Positions 655-48,303 of a stretch of DNA of 64,000 nucleotides are shown in pieces (positions within the stretch are counted from its first letter, which is position 1; each line of letters begins with the position of its first letter). The position numbers and the translations under genes are program-made. The notes under the pieces are model-generated. The model made no database searches. It saw only the letters and a program-made list of their open reading frames with translations, and was not told the DNA's origin. Source of the stretch: Eledone cirrhosa (Eukaryota); contig OZ024759.1 in NCBI GenBank assembly GCA_964016885.1, forward strand, positions 8,184,001-8,248,000. The letters run 5' to 3'.

Positions 655-1866
655 TAAGGTATAGAAAAATTCTTAATAGGAACAATATAAAAATATCCTT
701 CTCTACTACTCCTAACCTAGCAGACATCATAGGAATAACGAACCACAGTAAGATCACCAAGACACAGCACCTCGACACAGACGCACCTACACCTGACAAT
801 AACTATATCAGCCTTAACAACTCCCTAGCAGCATCCAATAGTGTTGGCAACGGCATCCGCAGACGCAACCAGCATAACCGCGAAATGACTGGGGAACATG
901 CAGAACATGACGTGCGGAATAACAATCGCACCATCCCGCGTGCTGTAGGTTGTAATTGTGCTAACGACAGCTGCGGTAGCGTAGGTAACAACGTAGGCAG
1001 CAACAATGATAGCCTTACCGTGAGAAATAGACGGAACCGCGACAGAAATTGCAACTGCCGCGACAGAGGACGCTGCCCCCTTAGAGGATACTGCTTGACT
1101 GATAGGGTTATATATAGATGCACTATTACTAGCCACAATAGCGTTAAACATTATATAGGGGCTACCTCCGGCCCGTTCAAAATTAGGTTTCGAACACATC
1201 TCCACTCTTTCACAAATAGAAAACTAAGGCACCCCACTTCGCTCGCGGACTACATCACATCACTAAAGGACTTAAACATCAGCTTCTCCACGCACTGGGA
1301 GATTATCGGCAGGGCTGCACCGTACAACTTCAAGAGGAAATGCGATCTTTGCCTCATGGAGCTCTACCACATCATAACTGCCCCCCACGAGCTCATTAAC
1401 AGCAGAGCTGAAACAGCGATAAGTTGTACACATCGCTTAAAAATATCCTTCTTCAGATGGGTTAAGGATGAGGAGTGAAACCGTACACCGGATCTCCCTG
1501 CAACAAGTCTTAACACCCCGGCGGGCAGGTGCTGCAAAATAACACCCAGGAAACTATCCTTGCATACCAGACCCAGCCTCAGACAAACAGATGCGGCAAA
1601 AAAAAAAAAAAAAAATTGGCCGGGAAAAACTGCCCTAACACCGGCCAGAGTTACCTCCCTTGACCTGCTGCAAAATCAAAACAAGATATTTTTGCGAGCA
1701 ATGAACCTTGATGTGGATTTAACCCCAAAAACTCTTTCCGAGCAATATAAGGAACACTTGTGATTATTTATGCCCTTGAGAAGCCCAACTGGGCGAAACG
1801 TACGTAGGTGCTGTTTTAAATAAACATGTTTTAACGGTCTATTCTCCGATTTTTTACTTTCCCATA
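655..1866 (+). mobile_element. 5'-truncated Penelope-like element: C-terminal GIY-YIG endonuclease plus 3' pseudo-LTR, inserted in (TA)n
   Basis: The frame is open from about 655 to 1478 and reads [57 protein letters not shown]. The N-terminal YIYI part of the called ORF is microsatellite. (TA)n flanks both sides and a hammerhead-like motif lies at 1771-1810. Confidence 0.85.
1771..1810 (+). ncRNA. Minimal type I hammerhead-like motif (U3-A8 core variant) in the Penelope pLTR
   Basis: tgccc TTGAGAA gccc-aact-gggc GAAA cgtacg (palindromic stem III) TA ggtg. Stem I is weak. Confidence 0.6.
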
Positions 1867-1965
1867 TGTATTTATATATATATATATGTATTTATATATA
1901 TATATATATATATATATATATATATATATATATATATATATATATATATATATATATATATATAT

Positions 1966-2948
1966 AACGAAGGAAATGTGGTAAGGAACCAGGTGGACCA
2001 TAACGCACCAAAGTACTTAATACTTAGAGTAGTAGAGTGGGTAATAGGAACGAGTAGGACCCCGACGGCTGAGCTCAAGCCGTTTCGACGGCTAATTCTG
2101 GACTAAATGAACATTTTTATCCTGGTATATGAATAGCCGAGCTTCTCAGGGGGTAATTCCATATATGGTAAAAGTGATTGTCACAAGGATTGGTCAAAAG
2201 TTTGTTGTTGAGACACGTAATTCTATCATGGCAATTTGTGGAAGGAAGGTGTAGCTGAACCTGCCAGTAGAAGAAAGAGGGAGGCGGGGTGGAGGAAACC
2301 CAGTTGTGCATTGATAGTGCCAACAACAGCAGGGCAGGAGGTCAAGGAAGTATACTAGGGAGGGGGAGGAAGTCGAAACAATAAGTAAAACAATATGGGG
2401 TAAATATATAGAGGAATACGGAGAATGTTAAAAAAACAATTAAATATAGAAAAAAACAATTTCTGGTTACTATAACCTAAGGACAGCTATCACTCTCTAG
2501 CTGTCCTTAGGTTATAGTAACCAGAAATTGTTTTTTTCTATATTTAATTGTTTTTTTAACATTCTCCGTATTCCTCTATATATTTACCCCATATTGTTTT
2601 ACTTATTGTTTCGACTTCCTACCGCTCCCCCTCCCTAGTATAGGTGCTTGACCTCCTGCCCTGCTGTAGTTGGCACTATCAACGCACGACTGGGTTTCCT
2701 CCACCCCCCTCCCTCTTTCTTCTACTGGCAGGTTCAGCTACCCCTTCCTTCCACAAATTGCCATGATAGAATTACATGTCTCAACAACAAACTTTTGACC
2801 AATCCTTGTGACAATCACTTTTACCATATATGGAATTACCCCCTGAGAAGCTCGGCTATTCATATACCAGGATAAAAATGTTCATTTAGTCCAGAATTAG
2901 CCGTCGAAACGGCTTGAACTCAGCCGTCGGGGTCCTACTCGTTCCTAT
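1966..2948. mobile_element. Fold-back element family A: 78-nt tail plus about 450-bp near-perfect inverted repeat, flanked by (TA)n
   Basis: Arm 2044-2489 is the reverse complement of arm 2498-2948, with an 8-nt loop (tcactctc). Tail is 1966-2043. Shorter copies lie at 8436-8544 and 48117-48303. Confidence 0.9.
2838..2933 (+). ncRNA. Type I hammerhead-like motif, atypical core CUGAGAA (mirror copy at 2059-2154 on minus)
   Basis: acccc CTGAGAA g..cggcta[long loop]tagccgtc GAAA cggct-tgaactc-agccg TC ggggt. Confidence 0.7.
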
Positions 2949-3207
2949 ATATATATATATATATATATATATATATATATATATATATATATATATATTA
3001 TACATACATATATATATTTCAAGGCTACCATAATATAAATATGGTACCATAAATATAGTTTCCATTTATTTAATATCATTGAATATTTACTCGAGAAAGC
3101 TGTTGAGTGCTCTAAATCAGTTATAAACATTTATATTTGTTGGACTTCCAACAAATTAAATACCCCTTCTACTTATACATATATATATATGTATTTATAT
3201 ATATATA

Positions 3208-47420: not shown

Positions 47421-47492
47421 TACATACATACATACATATATATATATATATATATAAATATATATATATATATAAATATATATATATATATA

Positions 47493-47947
47493 AAAGAAAT
47501 AAGATTTCGCTTCAAGCATAGCTTTATACAAAAATGTATAGAAATTTCGTATTTCTAAAGAAACACGGTTTTAGTATGCAAACACCGGGAACTAACGCCC
47601 TCCGCTGGTGTCCACCAGAAGCAAGGGGGACAACCGTCTATGCATGTCAGGCTTGACTGGCCTTCGTCAGGACGGTCCCTCCCACCGCTTGCTACTGCTG
47701 GACTTATGCAGCTTCATATGCAAATGAGATTAATCACCTCATTTACTCAGAGGAGAAAACTATATATTCTCGACTGTTTTCAAGTCCAGTAGTAGCAAGC
47801 GTGGGAGGAACCGTCCTGACGAAGGCCAGTCAAGCCTGAAATGCATAGACGCTTGTCCCCCTTGCTTCTGCTGGACACCACCAGAGGCCGTTAGCCCCCG
47901 GTGTTTGCTTCCTAAAACCGTGTTTCTTTAGAAATACAAAATTTATA
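47493..47947. mobile_element. Fold-back element in (TA)n: tail plus about 165-bp inverted arms
   Basis: Arm about 47541-47705 pairs with arm 47782-47947. Tail is 47493-47540. Confidence 0.85.
47812..47851 (+). ncRNA. Minimal type I hammerhead ribozyme motif (mirror at 47633-47676 has GAAA changed to GACA)
   Basis: cgtc CTGACGA aggc-cagtcaa-gcct GAAA tgca (palindrome) TA gacg. Confidence 0.85.
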
Positions 47948-48116
47948 TATATATATATTTATATATTTATATATAAACCCGTAGAGCAAATATTTATTAA
48001 AATAACAGATTAAAGTTTAAGCAAAGAATCGCTGCTTTCGCCTTTAACGGGATCTTCTAAAGTTTCAAAAGACCCCGTTAAGGGTTCTTATAATATATAT
48101 ATATATATATATATAT

Positions 48117-48303
48117 AACGAAGGAAATGTGGTAAGGAACCAGGTGGACCATAACGCACCAAAGTACTCAATACTTAGGGTAGTAGAGTGGGTAATAGGA
48201 ACGAGTAAGACCCCGACAGCTGAGCTCAAGCCGTTTCGCTCAGTCCAGAATTAGCCGTCGAAACGGCTTGAGCTCAGCCGTCGGGGTCTTACTTGTTCCT
48301 ATA
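48117..48303. mobile_element. Intermediate-length copy of fold-back family A
   Basis: Same tail and same right end as 1966-2948, with arms of about 44 bp. Confidence 0.85.

Follow-up and report, generated by a model that had tools for sequence, protein, structure and literature searches.

Hammerhead ribozymes in an Eledone cirrhosa genomic window mark Hydra-clade Penelope-like elements and retrozymes that likely share one insertion enzyme

A 64,000-nucleotide stretch of the Eledone cirrhosa genome (contig OZ024759.1, positions 8,184,001 to 8,248,000; hereafter the window) raises the question of what kinds of element carry its many hammerhead ribozymes and which enzyme placed them beside (TA)n tracts. 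A sequence-only reading had described nine hammerheads as unrelated and attributed all of them to Penelope-like elements. We divide the nine into five 3′ ends of Hydra-clade Penelope-like elements and four retrozymes, and sequence comparison makes it likely that a single Hydra reverse transcriptase-endonuclease activity put both kinds into (TA)n. Since 2020 it has been an open question which enzyme mobilises animal retrozymes; Penelope-like elements were named a strong candidate (PMC7229834), and a 2026 preprint contributed pseudo-LTR trees and observations of co-occurrence (bioRxiv 10.64898/2026.07.22.740005).

A descriptor scan recovered all nine type I architectures at the positions claimed for them. 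The first, stricter descriptor produced only 4 calls and was replaced by a relaxed one which, at a score of at least 28, made 12 calls in the window, far above the mean of 0.18-0.22 (maximum 2) in two sets of 200 dinucleotide shuffles, the control that the earlier reading had proposed. Nine calls are family members (1776+, 15034+, 16635+, 17096-, 29473-, 29649+, 46301+, 47010- and 47816+). The other three, at 7292, 33645 and 38569, are probably chance matches, having no relative among 414 distinct contexts, and imply that the shuffles somewhat underestimate the false rate. The family A pair (2843+ and 2149-) was detected only with looser stems and has a C3.A8 core mismatch, and the second arms at 17310 and 47633 are broken, by loss of G12 and by GACA in place of GAAA, respectively. 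Every entry in the list of nine was real, but the list had omitted the motif at 56064+ and an intact inverted copy at 29473-. Six sites lie, as described, in inverted-repeat inserts adjoining (TA)n (2044-2948, 14906-15259, 16995-17416, 29374-29748, 46981-47402 and 47534-47952). One-sided tails are clear for 2838, 17010, 29645 and 47812, whereas at 15028 tail sequence is present in both arms.

The motifs have the type I core (CUGANGA or UUGANAA, then GAAA and UH, with three stems and open at stem I), and positions 3 and 8 are paired in at least one arm at eight sites, the window copies of family A carrying C3.A8. Across 25 clusters, obtained with a scan that rewards this pair, it is C-G in 17 and U-A in 8, with a majority mismatch in none. 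Stem covariation had also been suggested as a check, and compensatory changes were found both at the 3-8 pair and in stem II of the F clade, where 8 of 9 pairs changed on both sides in a set of 50 motifs that came from a stem-requiring scan and is thus partly circular. Lone motifs fold weakly relative to shuffles (z -1.9 to +0.3 for 10 of 10), as expected of minimal hammerheads. Rfam cmscan reported zero hammerheads among 145 window matches at E<=1, in line with the expectation that standard annotation would overlook them.

Table 1. Hammerhead-bearing features and associated sequences in the window
Feature	Positions	Strand	Description
Family B, 5′-truncated Hydra element	657..1872	+	Endonuclease ORF remnant 657-1475, 3′ UTR, ends at (TA)n (tblastn, translation)
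Family B hammerhead	~1770-1812	+	U3-A8 core, weak stem I
Family A tail, 77 nt	1967..2043	-	In full-length tandem units this sequence comes after the pseudo-LTR end
Family A fold-back	2044..2948	.	Two 5′-truncated 3′ UTR arms head to head; hammerhead cores 2149(-), 2843(+)
Family C, Hydra 3′ end	14906..15259	.	Hammerhead 15028-15120(+); inverted arm of tail only
Family D retrozyme	16320..16800	+	One 435-nt monomer and start of the next; hammerhead 16629-16671
Family E retrozyme fold-back	16939..17475	.	Monomer ~588 nt; hammerhead 17010-17101(-), U3-A8 core
Family F fold-back	29374..29837	.	Intact hammerheads, cores 29473-, 29649+; tail 29749-29837; 3′ end of AT-rich Hydra element
Family G pseudo-LTR, single arm	46175..46420	+	Hydra element; hammerhead 46295-46345, tail
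Family H retrozyme	46881..47404	.	Monomer ~534 nt; minus arm with hammerhead 46931-47014
Family I retrozyme fold-back	47495..47945	.	Monomer ~320-334 nt; hammerhead 47809-47854(+); tail on left
Second, very short family A fold-back and tail	48118..48302	.	Contains only the 3′ half of the hammerhead
Tenth hammerhead motif	56060..56098	+	U3-A8 core at 56064; same family found in L067, L343

When the arms were followed outward, five of nine joined an ORF of the reverse transcriptase plus putative GIY-YIG type, as had been anticipated, while the other four proved to be ORF-less units. We assign the five sites traced to ORFs (1771, 2838, 15028, 29645 and 46295; families B, A, C, F and G) to 3′ ends of Hydra-clade elements. 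For these the earlier view was correct in seeing 3′ ends of Penelope type that target (TA)n and have tails and inverted partners; the description "unrelated" was not, as the five share a kind and all belong to the described Hydra clade. The window copy of family B is 95% identical to a longer copy bearing the reverse transcriptase, and the family A tail matches tandem junctions of intact elements at 94.8%. Close family A copies extend into the ORF, which in the 3543-bp units of a sister subfamily is an open frame of 784 aa; the C3.A8 mismatch of both window A hammerheads is found in 11 of 12 close copies. For family C, two relatives share ~2.3 kb of upstream sequence that reaches an endonuclease ORF. 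The family G tail runs into the beginning of the ORF at one locus (L075), and a sister subfamily has a 5016-bp unit with an intact ORF (open frame 758 aa). The single ORF with its telomerase-like reverse transcriptase is open in these A and G subfamilies and was found only as fragments in B, C and F. The predicted A protein (mean pLDDT 93.7) has telomerase reverse transcriptases (TERTs) as its best fold matches. Sequence searches of Pfam and PDB gave no recognisable match for the Hydra ORFs, except for GIY-YIG below the Pfam cut-off (E 0.2, 0.006); the VIY...YIG motif and downstream residues align.

That Hydra elements carry hammerheads and target (TA)n is known biology, and the clade as described includes an octopus family, Hydra-1_Obim (Craig et al. 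2021, PMC8557442). In a visual comparison with the published proteins, which have a C-terminal endonuclease, RW[K/R], DKT, CxCX5C, CxxC and CxH but no CCHH, A and G contain RWR, DKT, CxCX5C, CxxC and CxH, likewise without CCHH, and B and F contain the endonuclease-side motifs. Our Hydra-type families show the (TA)n insertion and pseudo-LTR of the clade, its hammerhead close to the 3′ end, its inverted partner and its tail on one side, and many families have U.U at the base of stem II. The published set is small and its families short (generally <3 kb, a tendency in that paper and not a strict criterion), whereas this genome has five families or more, in which 3′ UTRs measure 0.4-2.9 kb, units of 3.5 and 5.0 kb occur, and some copies are young and intact. 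A first look at the genome gave ~40,000 reverse transcriptase candidates, a figure that is not a copy number.

The remaining sites (16629, 17010, 46931 and 47812; families D, E, H and I) are classified, from their repeat structure, as ORF-less units of ~330-590 nt, that is, retrozymes and not truncated elements. The Penelope-like origin proposed for all nine is therefore unlikely to hold for these four, whose units are circularly permuted and ORF-less. This reading covered the 12-30 best-matching copies per family, in which a family's own downstream sequence was found upstream at a fixed period in 23/30 copies of D, 17/30 of E, 30/30 of H (partly by construction, the H query having spanned tail sequence) and 4/12 of I; families A, C, F and G gave no consistent upstream period of this kind. 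In the window, family D shows the direct repeat itself (16320-16365 = 16755-16800), with a period of 413-435 in the 23 copies. Tandem pairs occur at 3/30 D, 3/30 E, 11/30 H (at 524-536 nt) and 1/12 I loci. The longest circular ORF is 47-55 aa, GC content is 34-43%, and circularized monomers are more stably folded than shuffled ones (MFE z -3.4 to -6.9, 30 shuffles each). Second arms in the window are partial or defective: the plus-strand arm of E has a hammerhead broken at G12 and holds part of the tail, the short plus arm of H retains the 5′ half only, and the minus arm of I has the broken (GACA) hammerhead. Each family thus has the short non-coding, head-to-tail, self-paired unit with one type I hammerhead and a GC content below 50% that characterizes retrozymes. 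The fixed TIRs and fixed length of MITEs were not seen in the fold-backs, whose arms range from <100 to >1700 nt and whose centre is the variable point.

In being ORF-less, low in GC, self-paired, equipped with one type I hammerhead per unit and found together with Penelope-like elements, D, E, H and I resemble animal non-LTR retrozymes (Cervera and de la Pena 2020, PMC7229834; Li, Clavereau and Pollet 2026, bioRxiv 10.64898/2026.07.22.740005). Those were published as tandem arrays with a mobiliser only proposed. The families described here from genomic DNA are mostly dispersed, 5′-truncated, (TA)n-targeted tailed fold-backs, show no homology that could be detected to the pseudo-LTRs of the five Hydra families read, and are in places joined to Hydra arms in single insertions. 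Our search of the open-access literature found no retrozymes with tails or fold-backs and no Hydra-retrozyme chimeras.

Could all nine sites nevertheless be ordinary truncated ends of autonomous Penelope-like families, with D, E, H and I representing pseudo-LTRs or deletion derivatives of rare parents and moved by the parents' proteins? This is exactly true of five of the nine, Xenopus retrozymes resemble pseudo-LTRs (bioRxiv 2026.07.22.740005), and non-autonomous Chlamys elements are like their parents at the 3′ end (PMC8557442). As a description of all nine we nonetheless consider it unlikely, since the tails of D, E, H and I lead into the start of their own short monomer and not into an ORF, the four have no similarity to the A, B, C, F and G elements beyond simple repeats, and H is found joined to family B although the two have unrelated sequences, H bearing no relation to the B pseudo-LTR. 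No autonomous, ORF-bearing parent of D, E, H or I appeared among the 12-30 best copies per family. The Chlamys elements, such as MRC1, are also non-coding, with pseudo-LTRs and head-to-tail copies; they differ in being generally parent-like at the 3′ end and in belonging to a clade mostly without canonical hammerheads.

The insertion pattern of the retrozymes bears on a second alternative, in which local recombination and tandem amplification spread the ORF-less units like satellites, their presence near (TA)n is no more than accumulation, and the mixed joints are later deletions. Unequal crossover has been discussed for retrozymes (bioRxiv 10.64898/2026.07.22.740005), tandem pairs are present at 11/30 H loci, and 27 of 102 retrozyme 5′ ends could not be classified. 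The copies, however, are dispersed over many chromosomes as mostly 1-2 units with 5′ truncations; 70/102 end at (TA)n, and 53/102 have an inverted partner of their own family at the 5′ end. Fold-backs pair one long with one short 3′ end in 51 of 53 resolvable cases, and in 13 of 13 for E, H and I, a count that leaves aside 11 unclear cases and 10 without a two-end cut-off, 7 of these with equal ends. Three of the four retrozyme families have two fixed 3′ ends, and no tail-to-tail joint between different families was seen among 126 joints. Satellite-like spread is accordingly quite improbable.

Shared use of a Hydra enzyme gains further support from mixed insertions. Among joints without an intervening microsatellite, 118 were within a family, 4 were switches between retrozymes, and 3, at two loci (G000:C1:200.6177 Mb and L273), joined Hydra and retrozyme sequences head to head. 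The best has the form (TA)n-[Hydra B with tail] followed by [H 1.6-mer, short end]-(TA)n, with 2-nt microhomology at the joint; none of the other matches among the 41 scored has this joint. A single event may underlie both B-H joints, and the Hydra-retrozyme joints, from two loci in one assembly, could stem from deletion between neighbours. In the contigs of four sequencing runs no listed piece bridges the B-H joint, which carries no weight either way. Candidate L265 was rejected for a TA remnant in between, and L300, L110 and L286 on inspection; L224, an A-F tandem joint, may be a nested insertion. Hydra ORFs near retrozyme copies at seven loci (L141, L166, L170, L175, L187, L023 and L293) are separated from them by microsatellites and were not counted as links.

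As the retrozymes share the Hydra insertion signature, they likely use the Hydra enzyme, and we read the Hydra-retrozyme insertions as candidate genomic evidence for movement in trans that earlier papers only proposed. In the mechanism we envisage, a Hydra protein, probably dimeric, would nick both strands of a (TA)n tract; reverse transcription would be primed within the RNA, each strand using one of two start sites that lie 55-170 nt apart; and joining of the two 5′-truncated cDNAs head to head would yield a palindrome tailed on one side. Retrozyme RNAs, tandem or circular, would probably be trimmed to unit length by hammerhead dimers and would compete for the Hydra protein, possibly via a tail-start hairpin common to Hydra RNAs, most genomic copies being presumed dead truncated products. 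Such a hairpin, defined after the sequences had been inspected, is found in 10 of 15 representatives, E and H among them, and is absent in D and I; of 8 fresh copies in which 87-152 nt separate the end from (TA)n, it recurred in only 4. We advance only tentatively the more specific proposal that each fold-back uses two RNA templates, one from each internal start site, handled by a Hydra dimer, and that unrelated retrozyme RNAs enter through the shared hairpin as SINE-like parasites of Hydra, giving ~350,000 motifs, above any published count found.

Parts of this scheme resemble PAc, a Poseidon element of the green anole, for which the passages concerned report that two internal reverse-transcription start sites account for the tail, that both DNA strands are cut and extended, and that a dimer is predicted (Frangieh et al. 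2024, PMC11167929). PAc belongs to a different clade and uses an AT-rich target, in contrast to the strict (TA)n here; those passages do not address trans use of foreign RNA or long/short arm pairing. Hammerhead cleavage, dispensable in vitro for PAc insertion according to the same passages, may also be unneeded here, by analogy and given that the window A subfamily spread despite its C3.A8 mismatch. Another (TA)n-targeting element could drive the retrozymes, and for octopuses a Naiad has been listed.

The window is not a hammerhead hotspot, as the density is similar genome-wide. An unbiased 790-kb sample contained 96 motifs, ~one per 8 kb, against ~2.5 in shuffles, and 84 of the 96 lie no more than 200 nt upstream of (TA)5+ (background 19%). 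The F clade is the most abundant, with 35 of the 96; a second random sample comprised 20 stretches, all from the three largest contigs. Although Rfam found no hammerhead, lone motifs fold no better than shuffles and three window calls are singletons, the notion that a loose descriptor merely picked up the motifs by chance within AT-rich repeats is scarcely credible in view of this excess, the majority C-G or U-A 3-8 pair in all 25 clusters, the covariation and an architecture like that of published Hydra hammerheads, and it is already refuted for the nine sites. Extrapolation gives ~350,000 motifs in the genome (270,000-450,000), roughly three times the largest published count found. Metazoan Penelope-like elements have minimal hammerheads (Cervera and de la Pena 2014, PMC4209133) that share the palindromic short helix III, the U3-A8 variant, the many families per genome and opposite-strand pairs 100-700 bp apart; they number 2,000-9,000 per genome, as counted with a descriptor other than the relaxed one used here. 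For cephalopods, our search of the literature, with the same scope as above, found no hammerhead census beyond the 235 Rfam hits of the giant squid.

Several hundred thousand ribozyme motifs, of a kind unseen by Rfam in the window, would constitute a large unannotated share of such genomes, and hammerheads, if expressed within introns, could affect host transcripts. The near-invariant pairing of long and short arms sharply constrains models of how inverted insertions are made by Penelope-like elements. A test system is at hand, as Hydra ORFs are available in young, intact form, the retrozymes supply natural templates, the (TA)n target is strict and an in vitro assay already exists. This genome supplies insertion-level evidence on the retrozyme mobiliser, and trans use of Hydra enzymes, if true, would answer how animal retrozymes move.

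The window was scanned with a descriptor for type I hammerheads (core [CT]TGAN[GA]A, stem II, GAAA, stem III, TH, stem I). With this relaxed core, 12 calls scored 28 or more, against a shuffle mean of 0.18-0.22, and they include eight of the nine sites proposed in the sequence-only reading. The ninth (2843+/2149-), whose core contains a C3.A8 mismatch, was detected once the stem requirements were relaxed. A second, inverted hammerhead copy at 29473 is also among the 12, as are three singletons that are probably chance matches, and a tenth motif lies at 56064. An Rfam scan of the window gave no hammerhead match. 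Six of the nine sites lie, as had been described, in fold-backs (two arms head to head) that adjoin (TA)n.

Other features of the window
Feature	Position	Strand	Evidence or remark
Amino acid permease exon	39555-40028	-	Pfam AA_permease_2, E 4e-15
HDV-like ribozyme, weak match	28808-28886	+	Rfam, 28.8 bits, gathering 44, E 0.26
LINE-type reverse transcriptase remnant	33075-35932	+	RVT_1
LINE-type reverse transcriptase remnant	56618-58029	-	RVT_1
Other LINE fragments	3608-5630, 6644-7988		
110-210 nt repeat	6118, 8050, 12744, 17870, 26376, 30248, 31365, 31870, 32502, 41124		
Minisatellite arrays	19275-20632, 48790-50134, ~59700-64000		self-BLAST
Decayed or partial piece of family F	3035-3177		no intact hammerhead call
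Decayed or partial piece of family A (tail)	8437-8531		no intact hammerhead call
Decayed or partial piece of family I	38078-38158		no intact hammerhead call

Some inserts may lie in or near the permease gene, and the HDV-like match is possibly due to chance. The 110-210 nt repeat has at least 10 copies, in both orientations and without a hammerhead call; the minisatellites have 90-nt and 61-nt periods, and the right-end array is GC-rich.

Unbiased sampling of 10-kb stretches, whose round coordinates were set beforehand, gave 74 motifs in a first set of 59 (shuffle mean 1.95) and 22 in a second set of 20 (shuffle mean 0.5). The pooled density is 1.22 per 10 kb (bootstrap 0.92-1.53); the window, with some 1.5 per 10 kb, is typical of the genome and no hotspot. 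Extrapolation to the 3.0-Gb assembly, with the shuffle rate subtracted and small contigs outside the sample, gives ~355,000 motifs (268,000-450,000). One sampled motif was called twice, and the total would fall by less than one tenth if once-seen families were left out; decayed motifs that escape the scan have the opposite, upward effect. (TA)5+ occurs within 200 nt downstream of 84 of the 96 sampled motifs, compared with 19% of random positions, and the first sample alone holds 23 sequence clusters. The per-Mb density probably has a similar order of magnitude in Schistosoma mansoni. Published counts, obtained by differing methods, are 126,247 in axolotl (PMC7229834), >38,000 in S. mansoni (PMC2770079), ~9,000 in Xenopus (PMC4209133) and 235 in giant squid (PMC6962438).

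The Penelope-like origin proposed for the inserts held for five families, A (2838), B (1771), C (15028), F (29645) and G (46295), whose arms are linked to Penelope-like ORFs, and probably does not apply to the other four. Close copies of A have an RT-endonuclease ORF upstream; a sister subfamily, which has a U3-A8 core, forms tandem units of 3543 bp in which the pseudo-LTR end is directly followed by the 77-nt tail seen in the window. B has an endonuclease remnant inside the window (657-1475), the G tail continues into the start of an ORF, with an intact frame in the 5016-bp unit of a sister subfamily, and Hydra ORFs lie ~2.3 kb upstream of C and ~1.9 kb upstream of F. A protein search returned 40,458 first-look candidates, with many open frames of 776-795 aa. 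The proteins of these Hydra families have RWR, DKT, YRDD, CxCX5C, CxxC and CxH and no CCHH, the same features that are given for the Hydra clade by Craig et al. (PMC8557442), whose supplement includes one octopus Hydra family that carries a hammerhead and prefers (TA)n. The family A protein gave a confident structure model, with telomerase RTs as best matches. For these five families the biology is of a known kind, on an unusual scale. One family A tandem array (L061-L062, G000:C1:91.47-91.49 Mb) has a 3543-bp period, copies 99.7-99.8% identical and three complete ORFs of 784-786 aa, and is a very young expansion. Five loci (L189, L215, L231, L234, L252) carry very short G-clade fold-backs with opposite-strand hammerheads overlapping or 12-64 nt apart.

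Constraint on the ribozymes was assessed in 50 F-clade motifs, where both-side changes occur in 8 of 9 stem II pairs and the covariation score was matched by 0 of 500 shuffles, a test that is partly circular because the scan itself selects motifs by their stems. Of 25 clusters, 17 have C-G at the 3-8 pair and 8 have U-A; a self-complementary stem III occurs in 17 of the 25, which fits dimer cleavage (PMC4209133). At the first pair of stem II, 8 clusters have U.U, a feature shared with many Hydra hammerheads in the literature, and just 6 have G-C. Three observations speak against a strict need for cleavage: C3.A8 is present in 11 of 12 close copies from the window's A subfamily, the folding of single motifs is weak, and in a 2026 preprint cleavage was seen in only 1 of 9 dimers from Xenopus.

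Families D (16629), E (17010), H (46931) and I (47812) appear, from their organization, to be retrozymes. The sequence after the hammerhead recurs ahead of it with a constant period, which is 413-435 nt in 23/30 copies of D, 546-595 nt in 17/30 of E, 519-537 nt in 30/30 of H (partly owing to query choice) and 294-334 nt in 4/12 of I. No consistent period was found in copies of A, C, F and G. The monomers contain no ORF >55 aa and fold better as circles than shuffles do; what they have in common with the five Hydra families is limited to simple repeats. Two more clusters (~438 and ~316 nt) behave likewise, and retrozyme-type families account for 11 of the 96 sampled motifs.

Judged by their junctions, retrozymes insert like Hydra elements. 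Among 102 copies, 70 terminate at (TA)n, and the 5′ ends meet an inverted partner of their own family (53), TA (19), another element (3) or unclassed sequence (27). Two preferred 3′ ends, long (with the tail, extra sequence on one arm) and short (without it), occur in E, H and I and likewise in A, C, F and G; in D the pattern is obscured by an internal TA run. Fold-back arms pair one long with one short end in 51 of 53 resolvable cases (13/13 in E, H and I), where independent choice would give about half; 11 unclear pairs and 10 others, 7 of them with equal ends, were left out of this count. A fold-back from an unassigned family (L367:8775-9361) has equal ends (87/87) and is a possible exception. 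The one-sided tail has already been described for Penelope-like elements, and in vitro work shows that it marks two sites inside the RNA at which RT starts (PMC11167929).

Immediately past the short end, most tails begin with a hairpin, R[CT]TC...GA[GA]Y (10 of 15 representatives), which shows paired changes between families and is present in E and H but absent from D and I. Because motif and offsets were picked after inspection, comparison with shuffles (0.46 expected) overstates the hairpin; among fresh-sample copies with 87-152 nt to (TA)n, 4 of 8 had it, one of these from outside the defining families. It is a candidate recognition element.

Microsatellite-free joints were same-family in 118 cases and mixed in 8. 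Three of the mixed joints are head to head, two of them B-H at one locus and the third C with the 438-nt retrozyme; of the other five, four switch from one retrozyme to another and one joins A to F. The clearest chimera runs (TA)n, B tail, B hammerhead, B ORF truncated within RT, 2-nt overlap, H, (TA)n. Its H arm (1.6 units) lies on the opposite strand to B, with the short end before (TA)n, and the insertion conforms to the long/short rule. As read from the assembly, its joint is spanned by no other of 41 scored matches.

The observed ORF links, monomers, (TA)n targets, two ends, long/short pairing and mixed joints are probably explained by a Hydra protein dimer that nicks both (TA)n strands, with one cDNA started at each internal site and the two then joined head to head. 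Retrozyme RNAs would participate as templates for the same protein. Cervera and de la Pena consider Penelope-like elements a strong candidate mobiliser of retrozymes (PMC7229834), and the 2026 preprint adds co-occurrence and trees; we found no insertion-level evidence in the literature outside subscription journals. The component parts are of known kinds, and what appears to be new is their scale and the genomic evidence for trans-mobilisation.
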